A stretch of DNA of 64,000 nucleotides, from the NCBI GenBank assembly GCA_964574685.1, contig CAZNOI010000005.1:1493-65492 (forward strand), written 5' to 3'. Positions within the stretch are counted from its first letter, which is position 1. Every line of letters begins with the position of its first letter. This document shows positions 21,216-63,999 of the stretch, one piece after another. The notes under the pieces are model-generated. The model was not told the origin of the DNA, did not search any database, and saw only the letters and a list, made by a program, of their open reading frames with translations. Position numbers and translations under genes: made by a program. The DNA is from an uncultured Dehalococcoidia bacterium (lineage in GTDB: Bacteria > Chloroflexota > Dehalococcoidia > SZUA-161).

Positions 21216-21218
21216 CCC

Positions 21219-21294
21219 GGTGGGGTAGGTGGAGCGGAGCGGAACCCACCACCGCCGCCTTGCCCCACGCCGTGGTGGGCTTCGCCCACCCTAC
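21219..21294. repeat. REP doublet (REPIN-like, about 75 bp)
   Basis: GGTGGGGTAGGTGGAGCGGAGCGGAACCCACC-ACCGCCGCCTTGCCCCACGCCGT-GGTGGGCTTCGCCCACCCTAC; near-identical to 21875-21949. Confidence 0.9.
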
Positions 21295-21309
21295 AATTCT
21301 TGCGCCCAT

Positions 21310-21873: not shown

Positions 21874-21874
21874 G

Positions 21875-21949
21875 GTAGGGTGGGTGAAGCGAAGCGGAAC
21901 CCACCACCTCCGCCTTGCCCCACGCCGTGGTGGGCTTCGCCCACCCTAC
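21875..21949. repeat. REP doublet (REPIN-like, 75 bp, most complete copy)
   Basis: GTAGGGTGGGTGAAGCGAAGCGGAACCCACC + 23-nt spacer + GGTGGGCTTCGCCCACCCTAC, with GTAG facing outward at both ends. Confidence 0.92.
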
Positions 21950-22698: not shown

Positions 22699-22798
22699 GC
22701 AAGTACTCTATCAGGCTTTAGCCTTGCATCAAGTAGATAACCTCGCAATAATCCATAGAAAGCTAATGACCATTGTCGTCGACTCCCAACCACAAGAC

Positions 22799-22914
22799 GG
22801 TGGGTCGAGCGGAGCTCACCACCCCAGGTTGATCATCTGGTGAGAATGTCTCAGTATCGTATCAGAATCGCTGGGGCTTCTCAAGGGGTGGGTAGTTGGA
22901 GCTGCGCTGCCTAC
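22799..22914. repeat. Degenerate REP pair
   Basis: GGTGGGTCGAGCGGAGCTCACCACC at 22799 and GGTGGGTAGTTGGAGCTGCGCTGCCTAC ending at 22914. Confidence 0.65.
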
Positions 22915-24161: not shown

Positions 24162-24251
24162 GGGGGTCAGCTCTGTGGCCGTGCGTTCCGGGTGCGAGGA
24201 TTATGAGGCAACGTTGGGTTGGCGTCAACGCCCGCCCGGGGGGAGCAGAAT

Positions 24252-24282
24252 GGTGGGTTCCGCTGCGCTTCACCCACCTTAC
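24252..24282 (-). repeat. Single REP copy
   Basis: Minus strand reads GTAAGGTGGGTGAAGCGCAGCGGAACCCACC. Confidence 0.85.
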
Positions 24283-24390
24283 GCCTGGTGTTGGAGGGAG
24301 TCCCGGGGCAAGGGCACTTCGCCGAATCGTTCCTACAACGTTCGGGGCTGCGGGGGGCTAAGCCCTCGGAACGCACGCGGACGGGAGATT

Positions 24391-24427
24391 GGGGGCGCAT
24401 GGCCATGCACCCCTGCAGTTATCCTAC
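24391..24427 (-). repeat. Second-family REP-like palindrome
   Basis: GGGGCGCATGG/CCATGCACCCC hairpin with a GTAG 5' of it on the minus strand. Confidence 0.45.
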
Positions 24428-24467
24428 CCTGGGCCGGACCCTTTTTCGATCGATTCGGGACAGTGCT

Positions 24468-26063: not shown

Positions 26064-26078
26064 CTGTTTCCTCCTGGA

Positions 26079-43849: not shown

Positions 43850-43878
43850 TTGACCCGCATCAGGCGCACTTGTAGAAT
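43850..43878 (+). promoter_or_regulatory. Sigma70-type promoter
   Basis: TTGACC-17 bp-TAGAAT; supports a TTG start at 43904 (RBS GAGGGGAG). Confidence 0.6.
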
Positions 43879-43903
43879 GCGGCAAAGAGGGGAGAAGCAG
43901 CAG

Positions 43904-45820
43904 TTGTCGGGTAGCGGGTACGCGGGCAGGATACTGAAGGTCAACCTCACATCGAGAAGGACGGCCGAGGTCGACACCGCTCAGTACGCGAAGGACTTCA
44001 TCGGAGGCCGAGGTATAGCAGCCCGGCTGTACTGGGACGGGGTACCGCCCTCTTGCAGTCCGTTCGATGCGGAGAACCAGCTCATCTTCATGACCGGTCC
44101 GGCCTGCGACGTGCCTGGATTCGGCAGCCGGTTCCAGGTATGCGGGAAGTCCGCCATCAGCGGCACCTTCTCCTACTGCAACCTCGGTGGCTCGTGGGGC
44201 GCTCATCTGAAGCGCGCCGGGTACGACGGGGCCCTGATCAGCGGCGCATCGGAGACGCCCGTCTACCTGTTGATCGACAACGGCAAGGTCGAGATCAGGG
44301 ACGCGAGCCATCTGGCGGGCACTCCGGGATTCACCTGCGAGTCGATGCTCAAGAAGGAGCTCGGCGAGGCTGTTAGCGTGCTGACGATCGGTCCCGCCGG
44401 GGAGAATGGAGTCGTTTTCGCCACGCTCCTGGCTGCCGACAACTCGTGCGGCACCGGTGGTCTCGCAGCGGTCATGGGTTCCAAGAACCTCAAGGCGATG
44501 GCTGTAAGGGGCGAGGGCAAGGTCGGAGTAGCCGACAGAGACAGGCTGGTTCGCATCAGGGCCAGGTTGAACGAAATACGCGCCGGTCTCCCCGAGTCCA
44601 TGAAGACCCTGGGGTGGCTTCTCCCGATAGAGGGCCTGAAGCCCAGCATCTGTCATGCGTGTCCCACCGGATGCGTCCGCGTGAGCTATCGCAAGGAGGA
44701 TGGTTCTGAAAGGAAGTTCATGTGTCAGGCCGCTCTCTTCTATCAGACCCGCGCCGAGCGATTCTACGGCGGGCCTACGAGAGCACCGTTGCGCGCCACG
44801 GAAGTCTGCGATGACTACGGCCTGGATACGCGGGCTACCGAGACCATGATCATGTGGTTGAGCAGGTGTCACAAGTCGGGCCTGTTGAGCGACGAGCAAA
44901 CAGGCATTCCGCTCTCGAAAATGGGGAGCACGGAGTTCATCGAGAGCCTGGTATCACGCGTTGCCCGTCGAGAGGGTTTCGGAGACCTGCTGGCCGGAGG
45001 CACCAGCAAGGCGGCAGAGGCCCTCGGCTCGGAGGCGCAGAAGCATATCAAGGACTACATGACCGCTACCGGCGACAACGACATATACGGGCCGAGGCTG
45101 TACATGACTACCGGCATCTTCTACGCAATGGAGCCCAGAATGCCGATCCACCAGCTTCACGAGGTGAGCGTGCCCGTCATGATGTGGGCGGCGAACGCCA
45201 TGGGAATGGAGGATGTGTTCGTGACTTCGCCTGTGTTGCGGGCGATGGCGGGTCGGATGATGGGGAGCGAGGAAGCGATGGACTTCTCGACCTGTGCCGG
45301 AAAGGCCGTGGCCGCAGTTAGGATTCAGGATAGGGAGTTTGCCAAGGAGAGCCTGATACTCTGTGACCTGACCTGGCCGGTCTTCTTCGACCGCGGCTCG
45401 GGCAATTCAGTGGGCGACCCGAGCATTGAGAGTCAGGTCTACTCGGCGATATCCGGCAACGAGACCGACGAGGAAGGGCTCTACGCTGTGGGCGAGAGAG
45501 TATTCAACCTTCAGCGGGCGATACTGGCAAGAGAAGGGCACGCCGGTCGAGCCCATGACACCATAGACGAGTTCAACTTCACGAGCCCTCTGAAGGGCGA
45601 TTTCGGCAACCCGGAGTGCATAGTCCCCGGCGCCGGCGGTGCACCAACATCGAGAAAGGGCGCATTCCTCGACCGCGACGAGTTTGAGGCGCTGAAGAGC
45701 GAGTTCTATGGCTTGAGGGGATGGGATATCTCGACTGGACTGCAGTCGGTCCAGAAGCTGGGCGATATCGGCCTGAGTGAAATGGCCGTCGAACTGGAGA
45801 GGCTCGGACTCGCCGCCTGA
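43904..45820 (+). CDS. Aldehyde:ferredoxin oxidoreductase family protein (divergent paralog)
   Basis: GYAGRILKVNLT, IGPAGEN, AVMGSKNLKA, CHACPTGC, FYGLRGWD; the GPEYE motif is not conserved. Confidence 0.88.
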   Translation: MSGSGYAGRILKVNLTSRRTAEVDTAQYAKDFIGGRGIAARLYWDGVPPSCSPFDAENQLIFMTGPACDVPGFGSRFQVCGKSAISGTFSYCNLGGSWGAHLKRAGYDGALISGASETPVYLLIDNGKVEIRDASHLAGTPGFTCESMLKKELGEAVSVLTIGPAGENGVVFATLLAADNSCGTGGLAAVMGSKNLKAMAVRGEGKVGVADRDRLVRIRARLNEIRAGLPESMKTLGWLLPIEGLKPSICHACPTGCVRVSYRKEDGSERKFMCQAALFYQTRAERFYGGPTRAPLRATEVCDDYGLDTRATETMIMWLSRCHKSGLLSDEQTGIPLSKMGSTEFIESLVSRVARREGFGDLLAGGTSKAAEALGSEAQKHIKDYMTATGDNDIYGPRLYMTTGIFYAMEPRMPIHQLHEVSVPVMMWAANAMGMEDVFVTSPVLRAMAGRMMGSEEAMDFSTCAGKAVAAVRIQDREFAKESLILCDLTWPVFFDRGSGNSVGDPSIESQVYSAISGNETDEEGLYAVGERVFNLQRAILAREGHAGRAHDTIDEFNFTSPLKGDFGNPECIVPGAGGAPTSRKGAFLDRDEFEALKSEFYGLRGWDISTGLQSVQKLGDIGLSEMAVELERLGLAA

Positions 45821-45859
45821 CATCCTCGGCAGGCAAGGGAGCCTCGTGCTCTATTGTGA

Positions 45860-46045
45860 CTACCTCTTGACGAGCTTGAGCTTCTTGACTTCGCCTCGGA
45901 AGCCCAGACTTGTGCTCAGCCTGTCCCTGAGGTAGCTAAGGACTTCTTCCTCGGTCTGGTTGCTGGCCCACTGTTCGTTGAGCGACAGAGTGACCTTCAG
46001 TGAGACCTCTTTGTTTGCCAAGCGATCACCTCCATCAACCATCAT
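45860..46045 (-). CDS. Small hypothetical protein
   Basis: 61-aa ORF with GC3-rich codons; probable TTG start at about 46021 after a GGAGGTG RBS. Confidence 0.55.
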   Translation of the reverse strand: MMVDGGDRLANKEVSLKVTLSLNEQWASNQTEEEVLSYLRDRLSTSLGFRGEVKKLKLVKR

Positions 46046-46106
46046 TATACATCAGGTGAAGGCATCGTGCCGAGAGAAATCTGAGACGCCGGAAGTTTCC
46101 CCGTGT

Positions 46107-46304
46107 TCACTGCCCGTCGTCGGCGAAGGCATCCAAGAAGGCCTGGGGCACTTCGGGGCTGCGGGTCACATACCCACGGCAGACCTCAACGAAACGAGCG
46201 AAAGCGTCGATATCCGTGAAGGCGAGATTCCCGACCCCGTCACCCCGCAGCACGACGTGAACGTGATCGTTGCCACACTGGAAGATATCGACCTGCATTT
46301 CCAT
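46107..46304 (-). CDS. Small hypothetical protein
   Basis: 65-aa ORF with gene-like codon usage, co-oriented with 45860..46045. Confidence 0.55.
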   Translation of the reverse strand: MEMQVDIFQCGNDHVHVVLRGDGVGNLAFTDIDAFARFVEVCRGYVTRSPEVPQAFLDAFADDGQ

Positions 46305-46426
46305 CCTGTCGGTCCGCCGGAACCCCTTTTTCGTCTTCCTCTTGCTCGAACCCTAGCACATCTTGCCTCGAGGACACCATAGTCCAATTCTCTCTATTGT
46401 CTTGGGAAAATAGTACCAGCAAGTGC

Positions 46427-46580
46427 TTGACGTTTACATTACAGAGCTTAACATATCGTTGCGTTGGCGTTACAATTGCATGGGCAATCGACTTCACCAG
46501 TGTTCCCTCGACTGGGGGAAGGCTCGTCGGTTCGGCGAACCAACGCGTGGGGTTGACAATGAGATCGAAAAGCCGATAAT
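46427..46580 (+). promoter_or_regulatory. Two candidate tandem sigma70 promoters for the tubulin-like operon
   Basis: TTGACG-16 bp-TAACAT at 46427-46454 and TTGACA-16 bp-GATAAT at 46553-46580. Confidence 0.4.
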
Positions 46581-47085
46581 GGTTGGGCAGTCCGTAGCAG
46601 TCCGCTGCGGACTGAGAATATGAGTCACGAGTAGCTGTCAGTCCGTGCGGTTGTTTCGGCACTGCCTGTCGAACTTGGGCCGGGCCTGAGACAGCGGGTC
46701 TGTCATTTTGCGCCAGCAACCAAGAGGGTGGCTTCGGTGAACTGCTATGCAGCGCTTGTGTATGACTGCGGGGGCACCGGCGCTCGGACAAGGATTCGAG
46801 GCTGCACAGGGAATAGTACTTCCGAACCCAGTACCATCTCCCCATAGGTACCCACCCGAAAGGGCTATTGCTGGTAACTGACAGGTTTGCTAAGGTCTGA
46901 CCGGGAGAAGCGCATTGCCTGCCGGTGCGCACAGGTACGCACAGGGACCCAGCCCGTTCGGTGCCGGAGACCTCTTTCGGGAAAAGGCGATTCAGGGGGC
47001 GCCACAGGGGAGTGAACGGTCAGAGGGCAACAACCGCAGGCCTGATACTGACGGCTCGATGTGATCCCAGCGAGAAGGAGTGTCA

Positions 47086-48261
47086 GTGATGTCCTGCTTA
47101 CGTCTTTCCCGACTTGCCAGACTCGTCCTGGTGGCCATGTTCCTGCTCACGGCGCTGTACGCTGTTCCGCTTGCCAGCGCCCAGGAACCCGCGCTCTCGG
47201 TGGACCTCAAGTCTTACACTATCCGTGACGTCAGCAACACGGATGTCACCGGCGAGCTTCTCCTCGCGGGAGATACCTATACAGTCTACTTCGACGTCGA
47301 GGTGAGCACCGAGTTGCCGGACACCAGGCTGGCGCTGTCCACCTCGCTGGAGAAAGCGGAGGATGTTTACTGGTCTCTTGAGAATGAGGACGAGTACACC
47401 GGAGTCGATACCGGAAGCTGGCAGCCCGGCCAGTCCTCGATCGAGTTCAATGCCGCTAAGGGCGTTGCCAACTTCGTCCTGACAGGAACGGTGCCGATCA
47501 ACTACACAACCGAAGTGCTCGCGAATGGCGACAGCGAGGTCACGCTGCATCGCGTCAAGACCATACCCATGGTCACCCTCTCCCTGGGCACCGAAGGTGA
47601 GCTGCTCGACCAGCGGACATCCGAAGTCGTCGACCAGAATATCCTTGCCTATCGGCAGATACTTACGGAGAAGAAGAGCCTTCTGCAGGGCGCTTCAGCC
47701 GATCCCACGTACTCCGACCTGGCGCAGGACATACTGGACATAGCCGAGACCCAGGGGGATCAGGGCTTTGTCGCGACTGCTCGCGCCCTGCTCAACACGT
47801 TGCCGGGCAGCCCGTCGGAGTTCCCCGGCGTCCAAGAATACGAGCAGGCGAAGTCCGCGAAGCTGAACGTTCTCCAGTCAACAGAGACCCAGCCTGAGTA
47901 CGAACAGCTCGTTTCTGAAATGATCGCACTGGCGGACGACCTCAATGCGGCAGGGTATTCGAACAACGCTATCGACGTGCTCGAAGCGCTGCCCGGCTCG
48001 GCTTTGGAGTACCCCGAGCCAATCGCCGGCGACTCATCTTTCATTTACATAATCGTCATCGTGATAGTGGTAATACTGCTGATTGCCGTGCTGGCGCTGC
48101 TGCTGAGGGCTCGGTCCAATGTCAGTTTTGTGAAACAACAGGTCGATGAGGAAATCGGGAGACTCGATGTACTCCTGGTCAGAATAGGCAGAGTAGACAA
48201 GCAGCTTGCACGTGATGTCGAGCAGGTTAAGGAGCAGCTCGAGAGGCTCAGCGGGAGGTGA
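47086..48261 (+). CDS. Secreted protein with C-terminal TM anchor and short cytoplasmic coiled coil
   Basis: Signal peptide ending LASA-QEP, internal tandem helical repeat, TM IYIIVIVIVVILLIAVLALLL, heptad-like tail. GTG/ATG start at 47086/47089 after GAAGGAG. Confidence 0.8.
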   Translation: MMSCLRLSRLARLVLVAMFLLTALYAVPLASAQEPALSVDLKSYTIRDVSNTDVTGELLLAGDTYTVYFDVEVSTELPDTRLALSTSLEKAEDVYWSLENEDEYTGVDTGSWQPGQSSIEFNAAKGVANFVLTGTVPINYTTEVLANGDSEVTLHRVKTIPMVTLSLGTEGELLDQRTSEVVDQNILAYRQILTEKKSLLQGASADPTYSDLAQDILDIAETQGDQGFVATARALLNTLPGSPSEFPGVQEYEQAKSAKLNVLQSTETQPEYEQLVSEMIALADDLNAAGYSNNAIDVLEALPGSALEYPEPIAGDSSFIYIIVIVIVVILLIAVLALLLRARSNVSFVKQQVDEEIGRLDVLLVRIGRVDKQLARDVEQVKEQLERLSGR

Positions 48262-48265
48262 AGCA

Positions 48266-50956
48266 ATGGCTCGCTCTGTGACCTACAATTCTTCCCTGCA
48301 ACTGGTTGGCTTGGGTGGAACGGGCGTCAACATAATCGAAGCCTTCATCAATAATCGCAAGGCCCTGTTGCCGATCCTGAAGAAGGAGGGCATCAGGGTG
48401 TCGTGTCTGGCCATAGACGTCGCGGACCACGACATCCAGAGTCTCGAGGAGTCGGGCCGGGACCTCGCAGACCAGCTCAGGGAAGAGGGCATCCCGTCGG
48501 ACAAGCTGTGGCTTACTGCGAAGTCAGTCAAGTTCCCCACTCCGGAAAGCATGTTCGATTTCATAAACAAATACCCCGAGTACCTGAGTCGGGAAGGCGT
48601 GGAGATAGTCGGGGAATACCAACCCTGGCTGTCGTCATCAATGGATATACCGCCTCTCGCAGGGGGCGTGGGCAGGAGACGGGCGCTCTCCAAGGCGATC
48701 TACGGCCTGAACTACCATCATCTCAGACTGCTCGACAGCTACATGGATGGGTTCAAGGAGCACCTCTTCACTTCGACGGTTCAGCCTGTTGTCTTCGTCA
48801 TCTATGGTCTCGGCGGCGGCAGCGGGAGCGGCATGGTACTGGACTTCACCCGGCACTTGAGGAAGAAGATAGGCAGCGGCGTGCCCATAATCGGGATCTG
48901 CGTGCTGCCATGTGCGGGCGACGACCCACCCGCAAAGGGCACATCAGCGTACGGTTCGCTCGTAGAGGCCGGAACGATGATCGACCGGCAGAGCAACCTG
49001 AAGACCATGCAGCAATTCGGAGGGCCGTACGAGAACCCGTTCAGCGCCTTCCTGGTGATGCCGCTGGGCCCTGCCTACAGCAAGACGGCGAGTCTCATCG
49101 ACGCCAAGCGAATCATCGATGACGCCATAGTCGACGTTCTGACGAACTCGATGAACTTCGACCTCGCTGACCTGCTCAGCAACATCGGCTCGAACATCGA
49201 CATGGAAGGCAACTGGCTCCATCTGCTCTCCACTCTGAGGATAAGCTTCCCGGTCACGGAGTTCATAGAGGTGACCAAGGTGTATCTTGAGCGGCTGGAC
49301 AAGGTCCGGGCGCTTCGCCGCGAGAAGCGGGAGGTTTTCGGCGGCACACATCCTACGGAGACGGGTGGTGTCAACAAGGTACTCAGCATCTGCAACCACG
49401 ACCTCAAGGAGATCTACAGGCAGGTGCTCATCGAGTCGGGCAAGTACAACGCGGAGACATTCGACGACGCCGTCGAGAGTATGGTGAACGCGGACCGGTC
49501 GGTCGAGGCCGAGTACATTATGCACTTGAAGGGCGTCGACGATTCGATCAAGACCCAGGTGAACGAACTGGGCCGACCTGTCATGGCCATTGGACTGGAT
49601 GCGCCCGATGGCACTGTCGAATCGATGATTCGCAAGCAGGCGTCCCGGCTTATCGAACTGGGTGCGTGCATCTCCAAGAGCTATGGCGAGTTCCTCGACG
49701 AGGTGGACGACATCCTCGAAGGCCTGAGGGATACGCTTCCCAGCGCTCAGCAGTTGACAGCGAAGGAAGTCCAGCTGGTCAACGACGTCTCCGAGCTTGC
49801 GGCAATGATACGGGACTACCTCGGCAGTCTCCGGTTGTACCTGGAGACCAAGAAGCTCGCCGACAAGCTGCAGAAGCAGTTGCAGAAGGCCGAGGAGACG
49901 GAATCCCGGCAGATGCAACTGGGCAGGGTCGAGCAGATTATCAACCCTGAACTGGTTGTCCTCTTCTCGCTGCTTTCTTCCATGTTCACGCCCGTGAGCA
50001 CTCAGCTCAAGAGCATGGACTCGCTGATGGTCAACTGTCGCAGGGTCCGGCGTGTTCTCGAGGACGAAGCTTCGCGCATCAACACGGAGGTCGACAATCT
50101 TGAGTTGAATCGCAAGGCGAAGCAGGTGGAGCGGAACAGGGCCAACAAGGAGATGAGGGGTATCAGGGTCGGGTTCCTGGCCCGGGGAAAGAGGCAGCTC
50201 TGGGAGGAAAGGAGCAAGAAGCTGGGGAGAGCTCTCTCCTCAGTCGACGAGAGCCTCCGGCTGCTTGAAGACGATCAGGCCAAGGTGCATGACAAGATAG
50301 CCGTCTATTCGGGAATTGAGCGAAGGTTCGAGGTGAACTCCGAGTACCGGAAGTTGCTCACCAGCATAGCGGAGCTGTCGAATCGGCACTACGAGAAGAT
50401 GAACGAGATGGTTAGGGACAAGGGCTTCTACGACCGGACAGCCGAACTGACGGAAGACGTGCAGCTCCGGCTGATGCAGAAGATCCTGATGGAGGACGAG
50501 GCCTCTCTGTCCAGCGAGAACATACTGAATGAGATCATGGACAAGGACTACCTGAAGGAGTACCTGTCCAGCGTGCTGGGCATATTCAGGGTCCCGGGCA
50601 TCCTGGGAGTAACACCGGAGTACAAGACAGACTACATATGGTTCGCCGTAGTGTCACCGCGAGGAATCTGGGACCATGACCTTACGGCCGATGTGCGGGC
50701 CACATTCTCGGGATACGTGAAGTCCGATGCGTCCAGGAGCATAGCGATACGGGAGATAGACTCCGCCGACCCATGGACGGTGCGTTTCATGGTTATCGCC
50801 GCAAAGGGAGTCCCCCGGATGCTCGAGTGCTTCGCCGAGATGAAGCACATATACGACCAGTCCACGGAGGAGGAGAGACTGCTCGCTCACTCCTTCCTTC
50901 TTGAGCAAGGCGTACACCCGTCGCGCGAGAAGGAACCCGCCGAGAACGCCACGTAG
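48266..50956 (+). CDS. Tubulin/FtsZ-superfamily GTPase with long coiled-coil region (Tubulin_2/FtsZ-like), 896 aa
   Basis: T1 LVGLGGTG, T3 GGVGRRR, signature GLGGGSGSG, T7-like NFDLAD. Start at ATG 48266 after GGGAGGTG. Confidence 0.85.
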   Translation: MARSVTYNSSLQLVGLGGTGVNIIEAFINNRKALLPILKKEGIRVSCLAIDVADHDIQSLEESGRDLADQLREEGIPSDKLWLTAKSVKFPTPESMFDFINKYPEYLSREGVEIVGEYQPWLSSSMDIPPLAGGVGRRRALSKAIYGLNYHHLRLLDSYMDGFKEHLFTSTVQPVVFVIYGLGGGSGSGMVLDFTRHLRKKIGSGVPIIGICVLPCAGDDPPAKGTSAYGSLVEAGTMIDRQSNLKTMQQFGGPYENPFSAFLVMPLGPAYSKTASLIDAKRIIDDAIVDVLTNSMNFDLADLLSNIGSNIDMEGNWLHLLSTLRISFPVTEFIEVTKVYLERLDKVRALRREKREVFGGTHPTETGGVNKVLSICNHDLKEIYRQVLIESGKYNAETFDDAVESMVNADRSVEAEYIMHLKGVDDSIKTQVNELGRPVMAIGLDAPDGTVESMIRKQASRLIELGACISKSYGEFLDEVDDILEGLRDTLPSAQQLTAKEVQLVNDVSELAAMIRDYLGSLRLYLETKKLADKLQKQLQKAEETESRQMQLGRVEQIINPELVVLFSLLSSMFTPVSTQLKSMDSLMVNCRRVRRVLEDEASRINTEVDNLELNRKAKQVERNRANKEMRGIRVGFLARGKRQLWEERSKKLGRALSSVDESLRLLEDDQAKVHDKIAVYSGIERRFEVNSEYRKLLTSIAELSNRHYEKMNEMVRDKGFYDRTAELTEDVQLRLMQKILMEDEASLSSENILNEIMDKDYLKEYLSSVLGIFRVPGILGVTPEYKTDYIWFAVVSPRGIWDHDLTADVRATFSGYVKSDASRSIAIREIDSADPWTVRFMVIAAKGVPRMLECFAEMKHIYDQSTEEERLLAHSFLLEQGVHPSREKEPAENAT

Positions 50957-51018
50957 CGCCACGGGGAATCGGCTGCGCAAACCTCCTGGTCGCAGCGCCG
51001 GACGCGGGCTGCAGTGCA

Positions 51019-53352
51019 ATGGAAGACACTCTGCCTCAATTGAAGACAGAGCAGCAGTCCGAGGAGGAGCTGCTCCAGCGTCAGTGCCCGGTCGCGAAGA
51101 GCGAGGAGAGGTTCAGAGAGTTGCTTCTCAGGGCAACCATGTCTCTCTCCTTCCTGACCGCCGGTCTCATCGTCTACTACCTGTTGCCCTTCTATCCCTC
51201 GTCAATGTCCGTGTTCTTCGCCATCATGCTGGCGGTCATCGCCTTCCGCTGGCCGTCGGCGGCCCTCGCGGTCTTGCTGGTGTTGGCCGCGCCCGCGTAC
51301 GCCTATCAACTCGGTGGCGCGATGTGGGCGCTGGGCGTGATGCTGGCTCTCGCAGCGGTGCTGCCCTTCTGCGTGAGCAGACTGCCAGGAGCCATAATCG
51401 GATGCGTAGCGGGCACGGCGGCAGGGGTGTTGGTCCTCAGTCCGTACTTTCTGCTCTCGCTGCCACTACTGGTGGGGGCGACCCTGTTTCGACTTAAGGG
51501 TTCGTCCATGGCGGGCCTGTGGGCGGTACTGATGTTCCTGGCATTCCACCTGCCGTTTCTGAGCGTTGCGCAATCGACCGGTACGCAGGCCGGAGTGGTG
51601 CCCCTGTTGACGTCGGTGGACTACGCGCAGAGGCCCTCACTGGAGTACCTGGGGCTGGAGCCGCTCAAGGCTGCCTTCGGAGAAGCGCCCGCAGGCTTCG
51701 GTGACCTCTCGGGCTTCTCGGCCTATTTCGTTGAGGGCTGGGGCGGCATTGCACTGGTCCTGACACTGGTGCTGGCGGTCATCGGCGTCCCGACGTTGCT
51801 CAACCTGTCGCGGAGGGTGAGGCACAGGGGCATGCTGACGAGAGGCATGATGCCGGTCCTGACGCTGCTGGCCGTTGAGTTGGTCTTCCTGGTTCCGCTC
51901 CAGTTGCTGGACAGGCCGCTTCGGTACTACACCGGATTCAACCAATGGGACAACATAGCTGTACTCACGGCGATAGTGCTGTTCATGGGCGGTATGGGCT
52001 TCGCCGTCGAGTTCTGGCTGAGCCGGCGGGACCTGCGAGTGAACCTGGCGGGGCAGGTCTCAGCACTCACGGACGAGCTGGAGATACTGCTTGAAGACGC
52101 AAGGCAGGGCCTGCAGCAGGTGGCCTACGTATGTCGGGGCAGGGACCTCAGCGACGAGAAGGCCGCTGTTTCTCAGAGTGAGGAGAAGGTGGCGATGACT
52201 GTCGAGAGCCTGAGCGCCCTTTCGGTGCCCAGGCTCGAGGTGACTCTCAGCGAGTTCTCGAGTATGAGGAAGCAACTGCGCGATACCAAGGTGCAGCTAC
52301 AGTTGAAGCTACTAGGCCACCTTGACGATTGCCGGCGTTCGTACAAGGCGACTGTGGAGGGCGCGAGGCTGTTGGGCATGCCGGTCGCCCGTGACGCAAT
52401 CGGCCCCGACGTGTTCTCACCCGATGGGGATGACTACGAGAGCGTGCTCCTCGAGCAGGAAGAGCTGAACAAGGCCTTCTCGGACCTTGCGAGCGAGCTT
52501 GTAGCTGCAGGGGAGATGCTGGCCGAAATCGTCAAGGAGGAGATCGACCCCGAGTTTTCCCTCACCACGATAGACATCGGCCGTGGCTTCCTGGAACAGG
52601 GTAGATACGAGGAGGCCGCGCGGACGATCCTGGAGGACCTCCAGATTATCGACGGCAGAATCGAGAGCCCCATTGCTGAGCTGGCGACCAAAGTGGTAGT
52701 GATGGCAAGCGCCCTGCGCGACGTCACCTCCAGCCATATCATTCCGATGTTTGAGGCACTGGGAGACACGGATTCTGTCGAAAGGTATCGTCAAGTGATT
52801 GCCGACCTGGATGAGATCGCCAGATCCGTACAAGGATCTCGCACATTGGCCGACCTCATCGGCATCGTCGAGCAGAGCAGAAGACTGGCGGATACCGCCA
52901 TATTGACGGTCACGGAACTCAGACACAAATCGCGTTCCCTGGAGTCCGCAAACGACCGGCTGTGTCCGGTCAGATACAACTGGGGCAAGAACAGCCACAT
53001 GACCGGTGAGGTGCAGCAGTTGCTCCACACCATCGAATCCGAATCGGCGGGCCTGACCATCAGCAGCCGCTTCAGCGTGATCGAGAACGCTGTGCAGGCC
53101 GCCGAGCAGCAGGCCAGGATCATACGGAAGTACAGCCAGGCCAGCGAGTTCCTCATCAACTACCCCAATGTCGAATATGTCATCGAGGAGAAGCTGAAGG
53201 GCGACGGGGGAGTAGTCAGGTCTGATGTCCCGGTGAACGCCAAGTACGCCGCCGAGTACCTGAAGCTCTTCGCGGCGAAGCACTACGAGTACGTGGTGTT
53301 TGACCCACGTACGGCCACTCTCAAGCAGAAGTCCGGGAAGAAGACGGGCTAG
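51019..53352 (+). CDS. Multi-pass membrane protein with long cytoplasmic helical/coiled-coil domain
   Basis: About ten hydrophobic helices in the first 340 aa, then about 430 aa of amphipathic helices. Confidence 0.8.
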   Translation: MEDTLPQLKTEQQSEEELLQRQCPVAKSEERFRELLLRATMSLSFLTAGLIVYYLLPFYPSSMSVFFAIMLAVIAFRWPSAALAVLLVLAAPAYAYQLGGAMWALGVMLALAAVLPFCVSRLPGAIIGCVAGTAAGVLVLSPYFLLSLPLLVGATLFRLKGSSMAGLWAVLMFLAFHLPFLSVAQSTGTQAGVVPLLTSVDYAQRPSLEYLGLEPLKAAFGEAPAGFGDLSGFSAYFVEGWGGIALVLTLVLAVIGVPTLLNLSRRVRHRGMLTRGMMPVLTLLAVELVFLVPLQLLDRPLRYYTGFNQWDNIAVLTAIVLFMGGMGFAVEFWLSRRDLRVNLAGQVSALTDELEILLEDARQGLQQVAYVCRGRDLSDEKAAVSQSEEKVAMTVESLSALSVPRLEVTLSEFSSMRKQLRDTKVQLQLKLLGHLDDCRRSYKATVEGARLLGMPVARDAIGPDVFSPDGDDYESVLLEQEELNKAFSDLASELVAAGEMLAEIVKEEIDPEFSLTTIDIGRGFLEQGRYEEAARTILEDLQIIDGRIESPIAELATKVVVMASALRDVTSSHIIPMFEALGDTDSVERYRQVIADLDEIARSVQGSRTLADLIGIVEQSRRLADTAILTVTELRHKSRSLESANDRLCPVRYNWGKNSHMTGEVQQLLHTIESESAGLTISSRFSVIENAVQAAEQQARIIRKYSQASEFLINYPNVEYVIEEKLKGDGGVVRSDVPVNAKYAAEYLKLFAAKHYEYVVFDPRTATLKQKSGKKTG

Positions 53353-53360
53353 CTCTGGAT

Positions 53361-54317
53361 GTGAAGATGAGTGAAGAAGACCTGCAGTGCTCCGGGAACG
53401 CGGAGCGGACCCTGGCTGTGTTGAAGAACGTTGGTCTCGATGGCAAAGGGAAGGGGCGGCTCCTTCTCACCGGACAGACCATAGCCTATGAGGCGAGAAA
53501 TGGGCTCTTCTCACGCACGAAGACTGAGCTGACGATCGATCTAGCGGCGGTGTCTTCCGCTGTCAGGGATGAGGCTTCGAACGAGCTGGTGGTCGAGTGG
53601 CTGGACGACCAGGAATACTGCTCCGTCACGTTCAGATTGCCAAAAGGGCACGCGGCAGAATTCGGACAGGCGCTGAATGAGCTCCTTGAGCAAATGAGAG
53701 CGGACGAGGAGCTGGAGAGGCGGAAGGCTGAGTACGTAGATTTCCTGTGGGGAACCGCCTACGATGTCTGGGTTCTGACAGGTCTCTTGATCGAGACTGT
53801 TGAGCAACTCACGCTCGACGACTGGGCCGCGGTGGACGGACTCGCGGAACAGATCAATGAATCTGTGAGAAACGGACTCTCGCTCCCTCGGGTTTCTGTG
53901 CACTCGCTGGCCGACTCGCTGGCGAGCCGTGATGGGCCGCTAGTGCTCCGTGAGGTAAGCGACATCCTCAGGGCCATAGGCAGTACGCTGAACGACGAGC
54001 TGTGCCCTGCCGATGAGTGGGGTGAGCTGGTACTTGACGAAGGATTGGGAATCAAGTGGCGGGACATCCGCTTCATCTACCTGTTCGCGCTGAGCCACAG
54101 GCTTCTTCCTCTGGCGCGCAGGCTGTGCAACCGTGAGGAGCTTGAGAATACGATGCATCGGCTGCAGCGATTCGGGCTGGTGCTCAGCGAGACCCTAATG
54201 GAACAGGCAAACATATGTGATATGCAGGACGCCGAACTGGAGGACCTGGCAGCAGGCGTGGATGAGACGGCGTACGAGGTCGAACAGTCACTCAAGGAAA
54301 GGGCCGGGGTCGCCTAG
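53361..54317 (+). CDS. Hypothetical protein with PH/GRAM-like N-terminus and helical C-terminus
   Basis: GRLLLTGQTIAYE..GLFS...LTIDLAAVSS beta pattern followed by a coiled-coil stretch. Confidence 0.7.
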   Translation: MKMSEEDLQCSGNAERTLAVLKNVGLDGKGKGRLLLTGQTIAYEARNGLFSRTKTELTIDLAAVSSAVRDEASNELVVEWLDDQEYCSVTFRLPKGHAAEFGQALNELLEQMRADEELERRKAEYVDFLWGTAYDVWVLTGLLIETVEQLTLDDWAAVDGLAEQINESVRNGLSLPRVSVHSLADSLASRDGPLVLREVSDILRAIGSTLNDELCPADEWGELVLDEGLGIKWRDIRFIYLFALSHRLLPLARRLCNREELENTMHRLQRFGLVLSETLMEQANICDMQDAELEDLAAGVDETAYEVEQSLKERAGVA

Positions 54318-55751
54318 ATGGCATTGCAGCAGATAGGGAGCGAAGGCTTGTCCTGCCCCAGGGGCCACGAGAACAGAGGTGGCGCCGAATGGTGCACTGC
54401 GTGTGGGATGCCGGTCATTGACTTCGATGAGGAAATGGACCGGGTTCTCCGTCTGCTGGCTGGCTGGGAACGGCACACCAGGTTCGTCAAGGAGCGCGTG
54501 TTCATCGGCGTGGGAGGTCAGGGCACCCGTTTGGTCTCGTGCTTCTGCCGGTACTGGGCCGAGTACCTGAAATCCTCGGAGTACCTGCTCATCGATTCCT
54601 CCCCGGAAATCCACAGCTTCGCATCGTCCGTGGCCTCGACCAAGACCGGGGGAGATGAGCCCGCCAGGGTCCCAAGGCGTCACCAGATGCCCGGATCACA
54701 GAGCAGGCAACTTGGCTATTTCGGCCTCGGGGAGTTCCTGGCCCAGGCGGACGATACTCTCAACGATACCCTAATGAAGTGTGGGGTAAGGCCTGCGAGC
54801 AGCAAGCAGCTTGTGCTGACGGTATCAGCGCTCGGCGGAGGGACCGGCGCCGGTGTAAGTCCTAACGTCCTGCAGCGCGTCAGGAGCCTGAATCCAAACT
54901 GCCGAAACGTGATTATCGCAATAATGCCCGGTGACGACGAACCGGACAGCGCGCACTTCAATGCCTACTGCTCGCTGTCCAGGTTCATCAGGTCGGAGGC
55001 GGGTCCCCTCGCCGATATGGTGCTCTTGGTCGATCATGATAGGCTCATGAGACTCAGGGGCGTGGATTCCAGGGGCGAGGAGATGGCAAACGATTCCCTG
55101 GTGTCCCACATGATCGCCGTACTGACCGGCGGAGCGGCCGAGCTGGGGAAAGCCCAGACGGACCCGGGCTACCTTGCCAGGATGAGCAGATCGATGGGCA
55201 TACATGCCTTCGTTCCGTGCCTGGCTGTGGGCCGGAGTCTGGAGATATTCGGCAGTCTCACAAACATACTGGAGAGCGCTCTCGCCTGTCCACTGGCGCC
55301 GATCGACAGGGAGTCCATAGCACTGTCCTTCGTGCTTGTCCAGGTCCCGGAAAGACTTGTCCAGTCCATGCCGGAGGAAAGGCTTCGGGCAGAGCTGAAC
55401 AAGTGGAACAAGGAGAGATTCCCAAACCTGCGCGGCGGCGCCATTCAGTTCATGCACTCGAATCGCGGTTCGGACCGAATCGATGTATGCTTCCTGCTGG
55501 GCGGCACGAAGCTGGAGATCGCCGCCGGAAGGGCCAAAGAAGGCTTTGAGAGCTTCAAGTCAGTTGTGGAAAGTGATTCCTGGGCGGAGGAATACTCGTC
55601 GCCCGGAGCTGTCTTCGAAGTGGACCAGGCTGTCCGATGGTATGACGGCAGGCTCGACGACACTGGAACGCGCACCGAGGGCGTGTACGTCTGGACCAAC
55701 CAGAGTGAGAAGTCTGCTCATGGTCAGGAATCATCCTCTCCAGTAGACTAG
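54318..55751 (+). CDS. Zinc-ribbon plus tubulin/FtsZ (CetZ-like) GTPase
   Basis: CPRGH...CTACG ribbon, T1 FIGVGGQG, signature ALGGGTGAG, IAIMP, VLLVDHD, tubulin-type C-terminal domain. Confidence 0.85.
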   Translation: MALQQIGSEGLSCPRGHENRGGAEWCTACGMPVIDFDEEMDRVLRLLAGWERHTRFVKERVFIGVGGQGTRLVSCFCRYWAEYLKSSEYLLIDSSPEIHSFASSVASTKTGGDEPARVPRRHQMPGSQSRQLGYFGLGEFLAQADDTLNDTLMKCGVRPASSKQLVLTVSALGGGTGAGVSPNVLQRVRSLNPNCRNVIIAIMPGDDEPDSAHFNAYCSLSRFIRSEAGPLADMVLLVDHDRLMRLRGVDSRGEEMANDSLVSHMIAVLTGGAAELGKAQTDPGYLARMSRSMGIHAFVPCLAVGRSLEIFGSLTNILESALACPLAPIDRESIALSFVLVQVPERLVQSMPEERLRAELNKWNKERFPNLRGGAIQFMHSNRGSDRIDVCFLLGGTKLEIAAGRAKEGFESFKSVVESDSWAEEYSSPGAVFEVDQAVRWYDGRLDDTGTRTEGVYVWTNQSEKSAHGQESSSPVD

Positions 55752-55859
55752 CCACGTTACGCCCTCGTATCTCCCTGAGAACGGTTCTTTGTCGTCCTTC
55801 TGCTGTGCGTCGGTGCAGACGCAGTCCCCCAAATGCTATAATCGGCAGAAGGGGGTATC

Positions 55860-56570
55860 TTGTCTGCCAACAGGGTCCTGGTGGTTGAAGACGACCGGAC
55901 TCTCCTCGAAGTCCTTCGCTACAATCTCAGCAACGAAGGCTATGAAGTCATCGTTGCTACGGACGGCGCCGAGGCGCTGGAGTTGGCCCGCGCCCAGAAA
56001 CCAGACCTCATTATCCTCGACATAATGCTCCCGAAGCTTGATGGCTTCGACGTATGCCGCATCCTGAGATCTGAGACCAATATCCCCATCGTTATGCTGA
56101 CGGCGAAGACCGAGGAAGTGGACAGGGTTGTCGGCCTGGAACTCGGTGCCGACGACTACATAATCAAGCCCTTCAGCATGCGCGAGTTGCTCGCCCGGGC
56201 GAAGGCCGTTGTTCGCCGGTCAACCCTGGCCAGAGAGGAAGCCGAGAGCCCGGCGGTCGAGCCGGCGTCCGGACTGGTGACGATCGGAGAATTGCAGATC
56301 GACATCGACCGTCGTCGTGTCTACCTCGCGGGCGTCGACCTCGAAGTGAGCCCCAAGGAGTTCGAACTTCTGCACTATCTGATTGCCAACAGGGGACGTG
56401 TGTTCGACAGAGAGCACCTGCTTGAGAGGGTGTGGGGCTACAACTACGTTGGAGACCCGCGCACCGTCGACGTGCACGTCAGGTGGCTCAGGCAGAAGAT
56501 TGAGGCCGACCCGTCGCACCCGAGACACCTTGTCACGGTCAGGGGCGTCGGGTACAAGTACGAGGACTAG
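55860..56570 (+). CDS. OmpR/PhoB-family response regulator
   Basis: ILDIMLP, LELGADDYIIKPF, RTVDVHVRWLRQKIE, TVRGVGYK. Confidence 0.95.
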   Translation: MSANRVLVVEDDRTLLEVLRYNLSNEGYEVIVATDGAEALELARAQKPDLIILDIMLPKLDGFDVCRILRSETNIPIVMLTAKTEEVDRVVGLELGADDYIIKPFSMRELLARAKAVVRRSTLAREEAESPAVEPASGLVTIGELQIDIDRRRVYLAGVDLEVSPKEFELLHYLIANRGRVFDREHLLERVWGYNYVGDPRTVDVHVRWLRQKIEADPSHPRHLVTVRGVGYKYED

Positions 56571-56572
56571 CC

Positions 56573-58354
56573 TTGTTTCACAGCATCAAGTGGCGTACAG
56601 CTACAGCCTTCGCTCTCATCACGGTCATATGCGTCGGGGGGGTGAGCGGCTATCTGGCGCACTTCTTGAGGCAGAGTCATCTGGAGAGCCTCGAGACTCA
56701 ACTGACTGCTCAGGCGCAGATGCTTGGCTCCGCCTGCGCGGCCGGCCTCCGATCCGGTGATTCAGATACCCTGCAGGATGTGCTGTTGAGGATGGGGCAG
56801 TCGACCGACACCCGGATGGTGCTGCTTGACAATGCTGGAGCTGTGTTGGCGAATCCGGGAAGCCCCATCATGGATGAGGTCGACAGGAATGCCCCGGAGG
56901 TTGTGATGGCGCTCTACCGGGGTGAGGGGAGTGACATCCGGCGGAGCGAGGAGCTTGGTCAGGACGCGATGTACGTAGCAGTCCCGGTCGTATACGAGGG
57001 GCAGGACCTGGGTATCGCTGTGGTGTCCGCTTCTCTCGGCTTCGTCGGGAATTACCTTGGACAGGTAACCGGTGCGATAGTGGCCGGAGCAGCCATATCC
57101 GCCTTCGCTGTCGTCGCGCTTTCACTTCAGATAACCAAGGTAACCAGCGGCCCGGTGAACAAGCTTACTCGCCTGTCGCGGAAGGTTGCTGAGGGTGAGC
57201 TTGACCAGGAGATAGAAGTTGTCTCAGTCGACGAGGTGGGAGAGTTGGCCCAGGCATTCAACGCGATGGTCGGTCGCATCAGGGAGATGATGTCGATCGT
57301 GACCAAAGAACGCGACCGCATGGCCACCATCCTTTCCGAGATGGGTGACGGTATATTCGTGGTGGACGTGGACAGCAGGGTTGCTGTGATCAACCCGGCA
57401 GCCGAGCGCATGTTGCGCGTCACCAATGTCGAGGTGCTGGGGAAGCCGTTTGTCGAGGTCGTCAGGGACTACGAACTGGACGAGCTTATCAAGAATTGCC
57501 TCAAGACAGGTCGGCAGCTCAGTGCGAACGTCGAGACGAGTCCGCAGAAGCAGTTTCTGTGGGTCTTCGCCACGCCCCTCGAGCAGGAGTCGGGTTGCCT
57601 CGTATTGCTGCGTGACCTCACCGAGCTTCGGCGGCTGGAGCGGGTCAGGCAGGACTTCGTATCCAATATCTCGCACGAGTTGCGGACGCCCATAGCTTCG
57701 GTGAAGGCTCTGGCCGAAACACTTCAGCGCGGTGCGGTGGACGACCTCGCTGTCTCAAGGGACTTCCTCGCCAAGATCAACACCGAGGCGGACCGACTGG
57801 CACAGATGGTACAGGAGTTGGCCGACCTGGCGCGCATCGAGAGCGGCCAGGTGACTCTCGAGAGAAAAGCCTTCTCAATCAGTGACGCTATCGTGCAGGT
57901 CGTAGACAGATTGCAGCCTCAGGCGGACGCGGTGAATGTTCGCCTCAACGTCGATACGACCTCGGACATACCGCAGGCATGGGGCGATACGAGCCGGATA
58001 GAGCAGGTGCTCGTGAACATCGTCCACAATGCCATCAAGTTCACTCCGGCCGGTGGAGACATCACCGTTTCGGCCAGAGGCAACGGCCGGGAGGTCATGG
58101 TGTCGGTGGCGGATACCGGGGTAGGGATACCCTCAGACGACCTGCCAAGGATATTCGAACGCTTCTACAAGGCCGACCGTGCAAGGAGCGGTGGAGGGAC
58201 CGGGTTGGGATTGGCTATCGCCAAGCATATCGTCGAGGCCCACGACGGCCGCATATGGGCTGACTCACTGGAGGGCAAGGGTTCCACATTCAGCTTCGTT
58301 GTGCCCGCGGCTCCTCAGGAGGATGTCGACACGGGACAGGCGCTGTGGGACTAG
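56573..58354 (+). CDS. Sensor histidine kinase (HAMP-PAS-HisKA-HATPase; PhoR/WalK type)
   Basis: FVSNISHELRTP, NIVHNAIKF, DTGVGI, GGTGLGLAI. Confidence 0.95.
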   Translation: MFHSIKWRTATAFALITVICVGGVSGYLAHFLRQSHLESLETQLTAQAQMLGSACAAGLRSGDSDTLQDVLLRMGQSTDTRMVLLDNAGAVLANPGSPIMDEVDRNAPEVVMALYRGEGSDIRRSEELGQDAMYVAVPVVYEGQDLGIAVVSASLGFVGNYLGQVTGAIVAGAAISAFAVVALSLQITKVTSGPVNKLTRLSRKVAEGELDQEIEVVSVDEVGELAQAFNAMVGRIREMMSIVTKERDRMATILSEMGDGIFVVDVDSRVAVINPAAERMLRVTNVEVLGKPFVEVVRDYELDELIKNCLKTGRQLSANVETSPQKQFLWVFATPLEQESGCLVLLRDLTELRRLERVRQDFVSNISHELRTPIASVKALAETLQRGAVDDLAVSRDFLAKINTEADRLAQMVQELADLARIESGQVTLERKAFSISDAIVQVVDRLQPQADAVNVRLNVDTTSDIPQAWGDTSRIEQVLVNIVHNAIKFTPAGGDITVSARGNGREVMVSVADTGVGIPSDDLPRIFERFYKADRARSGGGTGLGLAIAKHIVEAHDGRIWADSLEGKGSTFSFVVPAAPQEDVDTGQALWD

Positions 58355-62775: not shown

Positions 62776-63999
62776 TCACGGCACCGGTCTGAGACCCGGG
62801 CCCGAGTCTATGCCGGTACCGCCGAACGTAGACAGGTGGCCGAGTACCTCAACGAGAGCCCACTTGTCCATTTCCTCAAACTTGTACATTCTGCCGCCGC
62901 CAGCCTCGGCTATCTCCGAGTTATACCCCAGATGCAGCAGGTCATCGTCGGTGTCGATGACGACAAGGTGGAAGCCCCTTTTCTTCATCTCCCTTGACAG
63001 AGCAATCGCCTCCTTCCTGGCGTCGTTTGCGATGGGGACATTTCCCCTTCCGTCTGTCACGAGGACCATGATCGGGACCACGTTCCTGTTCTTCCATAGC
63101 TGAACCTGCAGCAGTTGAATACCCCTGTATATGCCGTCCGCGAGCGGTGTGCGGCCCTCGGTTGGTAGCTCACGAAGGTGCCTTGCCGCAAGCTCGACGC
63201 TGGATGTGGGCTGCAACAGCACGCCGGCCTTCTCTCCTGCAACGGCAACGAATGCGACCTTGTCTCTCTTGCGATACGCGTCCTCCAGGAGCACCAGCAC
63301 GCACTCTCGCGAGAGTTCCGCGGCTCGCAGAGTGGCCATCGATCCGGAGGCATCAACTACAAAAACGATTACGGAGGAGGCCTTCTTCGCCCTCACCTTC
63401 TCGCGTAGGTCCTGCTTCTCGATTCGGAGGCTTCCCGTTCTGAGGACAGCGGCCCTGACGGTGGCGTCGACGGCGATGTCCGTTGTGCGGTCTCCAGGGA
63501 GACAAGCCTTAACGTACTTGCCGCTGTGAGTGCTCAGCGTAGGGGCCCGCCTTCCCGAGCCGGTTCGACGCAGCTTGTCATTTTGGAGCCTCATTTCGGC
63601 GGGGCGCAAGACCTTCCCGGGGTTGATGGCATCGAATGCTCGCTCACCCTCTCCGCGACCTGTGTGAGGCTCCCCGTCATCAGATGACTCGCCGCCAGTG
63701 AGGCCAGACCTTGTTTCGCGGGATGCTCCCGCCCTTTCCCGCCCGCGTCGGATGACTCCATCCACTCTATCTGTTACCGGTTGCTGCTCCTCGAAGGGCA
63801 TCCTGCGCATCCTGTGCGGCAGCACGAGTTCTGCCGCTACTCTGAGGTCACCCTCCTCCACGTGTCGTCTCCCATCGAATGCGGCCATGGTCTTCGCGGC
63901 CCTGGCCATCAGGAAGTCGGCCCGGTGACCCTGAACCGCGAACTCGGAGCAGATGTCCGCCACTGTGTCGAGCAGGCTATCGGCGATCCCGACTTCGTT
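62776..63999 (-). CDS. Magnesium/cobalt chelatase ChlD/BchD-like subunit with VWA domain (5' part outside the window)
   Basis: GHRAD...AA.FDGR..V...D...A..LVLPHR AAA lid, then VWA MIDAS motif DASGSM and GRTPL, TDGRGN. Frame is open to the window edge. Confidence 0.9.
   Translation of the reverse strand, partial: NEVGIADSLLDTVADICSEFAVQGHRADFLMARAAKTMAAFDGRRHVEEGDLRVAAELVLPHRMRRMPFEEQQPVTDRVDGVIRRGRERAGASRETRSGLTGGESSDDGEPHTGRGEGERAFDAINPGKVLRPAEMRLQNDKLRRTGSGRRAPTLSTHSGKYVKACLPGDRTTDIAVDATVRAAVLRTGSLRIEKQDLREKVRAKKASSVIVFVVDASGSMATLRAAELSRECVLVLLEDAYRKRDKVAFVAVAGEKAGVLLQPTSSVELAARHLRELPTEGRTPLADGIYRGIQLLQVQLWKNRNVVPIMVLVTDGRGNVPIANDARKEAIALSREMKKRGFHLVVIDTDDDLLHLGYNSEIAEAGGGRMYKFEEMDKWALVEVLGHLSTFGGTGIDSGPGLRPVP

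Follow-up and report, generated by a model that had tools for sequence, protein, structure and literature searches.

A conserved five-gene operon of Dehalococcoidia and archaea encodes two tubulin-superfamily proteins and putative membrane anchors

The subject of this analysis is a set of five genes on a 64,000-nucleotide (nt) stretch of DNA from an uncultured Dehalococcoidia bacterium (contig CAZNOI010000005.1, positions 1,493 to 65,492), referred to below as the window. A first-pass annotation had described the set as an operon with intergenic gaps of 4, 62, 8 and 0 nt, and this anatomy was borne out by our checks of open reading frames (ORFs), hydropathy, Pfam matches and AlphaFold2 (AF2) models. 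All five ORFs are co-directional and lie on the plus strand at 47086-55751. They encode a surface protein with a single transmembrane segment (g1, 47086-48261), an 896-amino-acid FtsZ-like protein (g2, 48266-50956), a 777-amino-acid polytopic membrane protein (g3, 51019-53352), a 318-amino-acid PH-like protein (g4, 53361-54317) and a 477-amino-acid divergent tubulin-fold protein with a zinc ribbon (g5, 54318-55751). Translation of g1 may begin at GTG 47086 or ATG 47089, with AAGGAG located 6-9 nt upstream; g2 is preceded by a GGGAGG ribosome-binding site, and the g4 stop codon adjoins the g5 start codon in a TAG-ATG coupling. No plausible internal terminator was found within the five-gene stretch. 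In the 1.2-kb gap 5′ of g1 lies a promoter-like site, TTGACA-16-GATAAT (46553-46580, plus strand), which, as a consensus match only (11/12), is a candidate operon promoter. This gap (45836-47080) is without a convincing gene, its ORFs of 140 and 230 amino acids overlapping on opposite strands, and the best promoter-like sites in the region lie here; the gap has no Rfam match, and Rfam and tRNA scans of the whole window returned nothing. The G+C content of the window is even, at about 0.58-0.62.

Each of the five genes has tens to hundreds of homologues, and we therefore regard them as real genes and not chance ORFs. One genome per species was scanned (185,579 species genomes), which revealed 255 relatives of g2; the best 80 loci were kept and combined with five from exact look-ups, and iterated hidden Markov models (HMMs) were run on all ORFs of the resulting 85 loci. 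Co-conservation, on which the first-pass annotation had made its interpretation depend, was found in Chloroflexota and in three archaeal lineages. Of the 85 loci, 71 have the combination of g1, g2, g3 and g5, and 47 have the complete set of five. Fourteen loci are incomplete: in 11 of them the contig breaks off next to the gene that is missing, and two others are solo g2 paralogues with no g1, g3 or g5 nearby. One of these paralogues (L003, 10001-12865, 954 amino acids) adjoins an Orc1/Cdc6 gene, and the other (L039, 2162-4801, about 922 amino acids) comes from the same metagenome-assembled genome (MAG) as a complete module (L038).

Three gene orders were observed, each of them fixed within its own lineage. 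Chloroflexota, mostly Dehalococcoidia, carry the order g1-g2-g3-g4-g5; in Nitrososphaeria the order is the same with g4 inverted, while Bathyarchaeia and Methanomethylicia have g1-g2-(g5 inverted)-g3, with g4 last where it is present. Neighbour-joining trees of g1, g2, g3 and g5 recovered the same clades. In these midpoint-rooted trees two Chloroflexota clades adjoin the Nitrososphaeria clade within the wider archaeal diversity, which implies an inter-domain transfer of the whole module, in one direction or the other. A locus labelled Candidatus Limnocylindrales bacterium (L051, DATHCJ010000009.1) has the Bathyarchaeia-type order g1-g2-g5(-)-g3 and is nested in the Bathyarchaeia clade; it represents either misbinning or a recent transfer from archaea to bacteria.

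The neighbours of the module are ordinary housekeeping genes, different in each lineage. When the flanking ORFs were clustered all against all, no sixth conserved gene emerged, since the recurrent clusters were antisense ORFs inside g2 or lineage-specific neighbours (PRTase, hydrolase, RHH-AIRS, cellulase). In 11 Nitrososphaeria loci, a very large protein of 1061-1455 amino acids with Big_1 and transglutaminase-core matches is encoded convergently just 3′ of g5 (e.g., L001 17516-21883 and L016 15456-18641, both on the minus strand); this synteny is lineage specific, and the protein could be a surface substrate or partner of the module. A viral or plasmid-like origin was rejected, as no relatives were found on viral contigs (IMG/VR) and the flanks are chromosomal housekeeping genes. 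The module differs accordingly from the TubZ/PhuZ segregation systems, and its partners are membrane proteins rather than TubR-like.

The most conserved component is g2, with 48-65% identity between the window and archaea in the core and 41-62% in the C-terminal α/β domain. Pfam Tubulin_2 (PF13809) matched residues 13-222 with 49.8 bits against a cut-off of 27, and the same family was present in every g2 homologue among the matches listed. Tubulin_2 models the FtsZ-like proteins described by Makarova and Koonin in 2010 (PMC2875224), as stated by Santana-Molina et al. in 2023 (PMC9871819). Judged by its sequence, g2 thus falls in the known FtsZl1/Tubulin_2 group and does not constitute a new family. 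Sequence and an AF2 model built from 32 homologues (pLDDT 88, pTM 0.74) divide it into a core (residues 8-330), a long-helix region (331-720) and the α/β C-terminal domain (721-885). In a Foldseek search of this model, the first ~335 residues superposed on whole chains of CetZ1/2, TubZ, FtsZ and BtubA, with CetZ1/2, TubZ and FtsZ as the top matches (target-normalised TM score of ~0.5, E values down to 4.5 × 10−7), and the tubulin/FtsZ fold of the model extends to H7 and the T7 loop.

The functional motifs of g2 are complete. The nucleotide-binding loop T1 reads GLGGTG (residues 15-20), the G-box or T4 motif GLGGGSGSG (residues 181-189, nt 48806-48832) and the T7-type loop NFDLAD (residues 297-302, nt 49154-49171). 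Conservation of these and other family motifs across 82 bacterial and archaeal sequences reaches at least 90%, the patterns being G.GGG.GSG for T4 and FD.ADL for T7, and F298-D299...D302 is invariant. The N-x-D-x-x-D spacing of NFDLAD equals that of the FtsZ motif NVDFAD as quoted in PMC3684127. Combined with the conservation of the T7 loop, the complete pocket implies an active site completed across the subunit interface, so that head-to-tail oligomerisation and GTP hydrolysis on assembly would be expected. Neither g2 nor g5 is a canonical FtsZ: the TIGR00065 ftsZ equivalog model gave 12.6 and 12.4 bits against a cut-off of 295, and neither an FtsZ_C domain nor a C-terminal tether peptide was found. 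We considered the α/β domain 721-885 of g2 as a displaced FtsZ C-subdomain; a comparison with the C-domain of g5 revealed no profile similarity that would favour this reading.

The second tubulin-fold protein, g5, scored 31.1 bits with Pfam Tubulin, just under the cut-off of 33. PDB matches to CetZ2, TubZ and BtubB had E values of 1e-6 to 1e-8. A family profile of g5 searched against PDB matched CetZ2 (1.7 × 10−8) and Asgard AtubB2 (7.8 × 10−8), with similar scores for FtsZ, TubZ and BtubB, and these profile matches identify g5 as a member of the tubulin/FtsZ superfamily. The protein begins with a conserved C-x3-H...C-x2-C arrangement (C13/H17/C26/C29; residues 13-30, nt 54354-54407) that fits a zinc ribbon, followed by T1 (GVGGQG, residues 64-69), a G-box (LGGGTGAG, residues 172-179, nt 54831-54854) and a family-specific GRSLEIFG motif (residues 305-312, nt 55230-55253) with invariant G-R-S-x-E-I-F-G. 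It is a small isolated family, given that 1.84 billion representatives, searched exhaustively with an HMM, yielded only 214 relatives, 36 of them below 1e-30. A recent duplication as the source of g2 and g5 was rejected, because only the T4 region of the two proteins aligns (hhalign probability 66%).

Unlike in g2, the nucleotide signature of g5 is not uniformly kept. Chloroflexota and one small archaeal clade keep both the G-box and T1, whereas in the main Nitrososphaeria and Bathyarchaeia groups these motifs are replaced (S-I-G-E-T-L-V-S-G, W-D-G-I-G-S-A, S-E-G-S-S-S-G). Two Dehalococcoidia relatives, P0164 and P0165, carry degenerate G-boxes (LGGGMASG and LNERIGNG), so that this loss is not confined to archaea. 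When compared with CetZ2, D283 of the window copy occupies the place of the first acidic T7 residue, with Y286 at the second; other clades conserve neither position, and the complete acidic pair is absent from every g5 group. The C-domain is 29-44% identical across clades, compared with 18-31% for the GTPase domain. A C-domain better kept than the GTPase domain, a G-box dispensable in most archaeal lineages and the lack of a full acidic T7 pair suggest a non-catalytic role for g5. The description of the operon as encoding two GTPases thus holds for the bacterial versions and fails for most archaeal g5 proteins, which have lost the G-box. Thaumarchaeal g5 copies read S(I/L)GE(T/G)LVSG at this position, and a link to Nmar_1262, the non-polymerising ‘FtsZ’ of N. 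maritimus with AGKAGSA in place of the G-box, was not supported, as AGKAGSA or AG[KR]AGS is absent from the best 150 relatives in the exhaustive search.

The first-pass annotation had also called g5 CetZ-like. CetZ proteins influence the shape of cells and not their division. Among solved structures, CetZ (PDB 4b45, 4b46 and 3zid) is nominally the best match for g5 by sequence and for g2 by fold. The margin for g5 is small, however, with CetZ2 ahead of Asgard tubulin, FtsZ and TubZ by 2-6 bits (36.6 versus 34.4, 31.5 and 30.5 bits; Asgard tubulin, FtsZ, TubZ, BtubB). Furthermore, a profile of residues 255-450 matched no PDB chain at E values up to 10, CetZ structures included, and a CetZ-type C-terminal domain was therefore rejected. 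The zinc ribbon and the lack of the second acidic T7 residue likewise set g5 apart from CetZ. Given the narrow margin and a C-terminal half without a PDB relative, ‘CetZ-like’ is a loose label for g5. Santana-Molina et al. (PMC9871819) mention ‘CetZ-like’ sequences in Chloroflexota-Dehalococcoidia, which may be g5.

Hydropathy identified g1 as a type I membrane protein with a signal peptide (residues 1-33), an ectodomain (34-310), a transmembrane segment (319-340) and a cytoplasmic helix (341-391). The ectodomain, of ~280 residues, consists of a β-rich part followed by a helical stalk; the conserved, basic tail of ~50 amino acids is encoded by nt 48106-48258. A g1 homologue adjoins g2 in 81 of the 85 loci. 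Between bacteria and archaea, the tail is 30-42% identical and the ectodomain 26-39%, the transmembrane segment being far less conserved. A tail conserved at least as well as the ectodomain points to an intracellular partner. No Pfam family was found in g1, even when ~40 relatives were scanned. The stalk (residues ~199-310, nt 47680-48015) contains an internal duplication of residues ~199-247 in 263-310, with a local score of 73 compared with 23.5 ± 4.5 for shuffled sequences; this repeat is a 66-residue insertion restricted to the window copy and its closest relative, L006.

The second membrane protein, g3, has about 9-10 hydrophobic segments (residues 35-335) followed by a 440-amino-acid helical domain (336-777) with a conserved C-terminal motif, EFLLNYPN. 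This large domain is placed in the cytoplasm by the positive-inside rule, on account of one loop of strongly basic character and of further basic residues that follow the final transmembrane segment. No Pfam family was found in g3 over the 41 relatives scanned. In contrast to g1 and g3, the proteins g2, g4 and g5 have no hydrophobic segments. The N-terminal domain of g4 (residues 15-125, nt 53403-53735) is modelled by AF2 at pLDDT 80-90 as a seven-stranded β-sandwich capped by a C-terminal helix, as in the PH-like fold, and Foldseek matched it to the PH domains of TBC1D23, Sin1 and p62 and to the IRS-1 PTB domain (E value of 3.6 × 10−5 with a TM score of 0.64; TM scores of 0.6-0.67 overall). 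Relatives of g4 gave weak GRAM, bPH and CheF-arch matches. Its C-terminal helical domain was modelled poorly and carries a near-invariant W155. As a fast-evolving protein, g4 yielded only four proteins in a word-index search; its family was recovered through the iterated HMMs, which did not detect it in roughly one Bathyarchaeia locus out of two.

A comparison with published FtsZl1 systems revealed both shared and distinct features. As in those systems, g2 passes Tubulin_2, many membrane proteins are encoded in the operon, and the host has its ordinary division genes as well. The published partners (vWA proteins, Ser/Thr kinases, a P-loop GTPase and OmpA), by contrast, are absent from the module, and no vWA, Ser/Thr kinase, P-loop GTPase or OmpA-like partner was found in g1, g3, g4, g5 or the 85 loci, in line with the first-pass annotation as regards vWA and kinases. 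In addition, g2 has a clear FtsZ-type T7 loop, whereas according to Makarova and Koonin (PMC2875224) the T6-H7 region and T7 loop are not identifiable in FtsZl1, and the C-terminal domain of g2 is α/β in the model and not mostly α. The partners g1, g3, g5 and the PH-like g4, as well as the spread over Chloroflexota, Nitrososphaeria and Bathyarchaeia, are not found in PMC2875224. The suggestion that the system is undescribed thus probably holds for the module, of which no published description was found in a search that is thin for subscription journals, and is too broad for g2, whose family is known. In the searchable literature, we found neither this partner set nor the T7-bearing subfamily, neither g5 with its lineage-specific loss of the G-box nor the cross-domain conservation of the module.

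These features leave room for several functions. Other neighbourhoods with one or two tubulin-plus-coiled-coil genes beside membrane or surface proteins were taken by Kaur et al. in 2020 (PMC7159879) as biological-conflict (anti-phage or anti-invader) systems, and the present module could by analogy be one in which a g1/g3 sensor triggers nucleoside triphosphate-dependent multimerisation, as proposed for the GAP1/DO-GTPase-tubulin-vWA systems. Passage across the boundary between bacteria and archaea and the fast evolution of g4 and the g1 ectodomain would suit such a role. However, the module is devoid of GAP1/DO-GTPase, vWA, HSP70, FNIII and effector/EAD domains and of any toxin-like or nuclease effector; PADLOC returned a single insignificant match, of 20 residues in g4 (E value of 0.0026), and no relatives occur on viral contigs. 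Its stable housekeeping positions, clade-fixed gene order, congruent gene trees and strong purifying selection on g2 do not point to a conflict system either, and its phyletic range is unlike that of the systems of Kaur et al., which are described from Firmicutes and Actinobacteria. We therefore consider this explanation very unlikely.

The reading we favour, with roughly even confidence, is that g2 forms filaments held at the membrane by g1 and g3, in a system that has g5 for a non-catalytic partner and g4 for an adaptor, acts on the envelope and is not the main divisome. Gene content, folds and motifs, topology, co-conservation and phyletic spread are shown by the analysis above; what we infer about polymerisation, binding partners and cellular role is as follows. 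With its complete nucleotide pocket and FtsZ-type T7 loop, g2 would be the engine that self-assembles head-to-tail and hydrolyses GTP once polymerised, its long helical region and α/β C-terminal domain serving as spacer and docking surface. In place of a second motor, g5 would be a structural partner such as a cap, nucleator or co-polymer subunit. On the cytoplasmic side, the soluble domain of g3 together with the g1 tail would attach the assembly to the membrane, and the β-rich ectodomain of g1, exposed on the cell surface, would form the extracellular face of the complex. With its PH-like and helical domains, g4 is a candidate peripheral adaptor to lipid or protein. The system would probably act in local envelope shaping or remodelling in single-membrane, often peptidoglycan-free hosts, alongside their main division machinery.

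Several points weigh against this proposal. To our knowledge, no experiment exists on any FtsZl1-type protein or on any of the five families. The canonical FtsZ C-terminal subdomain, with its four-stranded sheet, is not demonstrable in g2 at the sequence level, and in the AF2 model a single strand (318-327) follows H8 before the long helices begin, so the polymer interface may be non-canonical. Makarova and Koonin (PMC2875224) doubted that FtsZl1 forms canonical filaments, and, as described above, comparable operons have been taken as conflict systems (PMC7159879). The contacts between g2 and g5, g2 and g3, and g2 and g1 are guesses; residues 349-510 of g3 resemble residues 335-485 of g2 weakly (hhalign probability 76%). 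Finally, all carriers are MAGs, and the type of envelope is for this reason a presumption from relatives; some hosts are labelled Chloroflexia or Limnocylindrales.

The doubts about filaments and the atypical C-terminal subdomain of g2, together with the tolerance of g5 toward loss of the G-box, would also suit a GTP-regulated membrane complex that forms no filaments, in which g2 and g5 act as nucleotide-dependent switches or dimers controlling g1 and g3 in the assembly, sorting, adhesion or turnover of surface or S-layer components. Such a role could account for the surface ectodomain of g1 and the large novel membrane protein g3, and there is a precedent in a CetZ-like protein within the ‘Halo_adaptin’ sorting module (PMC10936438). 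Nevertheless, the strict conservation of the T7 loop and pocket of g2 indicates a cross-subunit active site and hence at least head-to-tail oligomerisation, and neither g1 nor g3 has a detectable transporter, glycosyltransferase or secretion domain. On balance, a complex of this kind appears rather unlikely, and we retain the anchored g2 filament as the preferred interpretation.

The presence of FtsZ-like catalytic motifs beside membrane anchors in one operon, much as FtsZ has FtsA and SepF, raises the question whether g2 could instead form a ring, anchored by g1 and g3, that serves as an alternative or auxiliary division apparatus for wall-less cells. Indeed, the N-x-D-x-x-D T7 loop of g2 and the logic of a cytosolic GTP-dependent polymer on dedicated anchors are shared with FtsZ and its tethers FtsA, ZipA and SepF, and the hosts often lack peptidoglycan. 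In contrast to FtsZ, however, g2 failed the ftsZ equivalog, its anchors g1 and g3 belong to novel families, and no dcw or division context is present. As the first-pass annotation had observed, ftsA, mur and dcw genes are missing from the ~35 scanned ORFs of the window, and they are missing from the related loci; none of the loci shows a connection with dcw, min, sepF or cdv genes. The same annotation had singled out a peptidoglycan-free host as especially interesting. This applies to characterised Dehalococcoidales and SAR202, which are without peptidoglycan and yet keep ftsA-ftsZ (PMC10608941), while Nitrososphaeria divide with Cdv (PMC3684127). The distribution of the module, 255 relatives among the genomes scanned, is patchy and far from universal in these phyla. 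Given the failed equivalog, this patchiness and hosts equipped with ftsA-ftsZ or Cdv, the module is not expected to be the primary divisome, and we hold a division apparatus to be highly improbable. By analogy with relatives of these MAGs, the absence of peptidoglycan in characterised Dehalococcoidales, Nitrososphaeria and other archaea would fit the envelope role that we propose for the anchored g2 filament.

A bolder version of this proposal can be drawn from the co-occurrence of the two tubulin-fold proteins. In α/β-tubulin, BtubA/BtubB and Asgard AtubA/B, as here, two such proteins are co-encoded, one of them with a compromised catalytic or nucleotide site, which suggests that one subunit serves catalysis and the other structure. 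The present pair differs in that g2 and g5 are not close paralogues, show a two-fold difference in size and come with dedicated membrane proteins. One could envisage g2 and g5 as a heterotypic polymer or capped filament, with catalytic and structural subunits, mechanically coupled across the membrane through g3 and the g1 tail to the surface or S-layer, and thus a tubulin-driven envelope-patterning machine of peptidoglycan-free prokaryotes that has moved between Archaea and Chloroflexota; we regard this version as distinctly unlikely.

After a 108-nt spacer, g5 is followed by genes for an OmpR/PhoB-type response regulator (55860-56570, plus strand) and an sCache/HAMP/PAS histidine kinase (56573-58354, plus strand). 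The spacer contains an extended -10-like element, TGCTATAAT, at 55834-55842. We rejected this two-component pair as part of the operon in view of its separate -10-like element and because other loci do not keep it beside the module. At a distance of 7 kb 3′, past the two-component and ABC-2 genes, the minus strand encodes an AAA_lid_2 plus vWA protein of the Mg-chelatase/MoxR-partner type (62776-63963); the gene is not kept with the module in related loci and, with the AAA lid starting at residue 2, may be truncated or split. The metabolic context (1997-13388, 5969-7840, 18802-27626 and 43850-45820) comprises a β-oxidation cluster with two acyl-CoA ligases, an acyl-CoA dehydrogenase, a thiolase and a fused 3-hydroxyacyl-CoA dehydrogenase/enoyl-CoA hydratase, as well as two aldehyde:ferredoxin oxidoreductase genes and three paralogous carboxyltransferase genes.

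No member of the FtsZl1/Tubulin_2 family is known to have a proven activity or role in the cell, and the family thus represents a blank spot in the prokaryotic cytoskeleton. The module offers an unusually clean entry to it, with a fixed set of four to five genes, a motif-complete g2, a partly degenerate g5 and anchors of its own. It is kept in Dehalococcoidia, Nitrososphaeria and Bathyarchaeia, which are abundant in sediments, aquifers and oceans and many of which lack peptidoglycan, and it documents the inter-domain transfer of a whole putative cytoskeletal module. Should the envelope be organised by the module, this would be relevant to the control of shape or surface growth in wall-less, S-layered cells and to the evolution of heterotypic tubulin pairs and pseudo-GTPase subunits. 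A heterotypic polymer of g2 and g5, if it exists, would constitute an independent prokaryotic parallel to α/β-tubulin.

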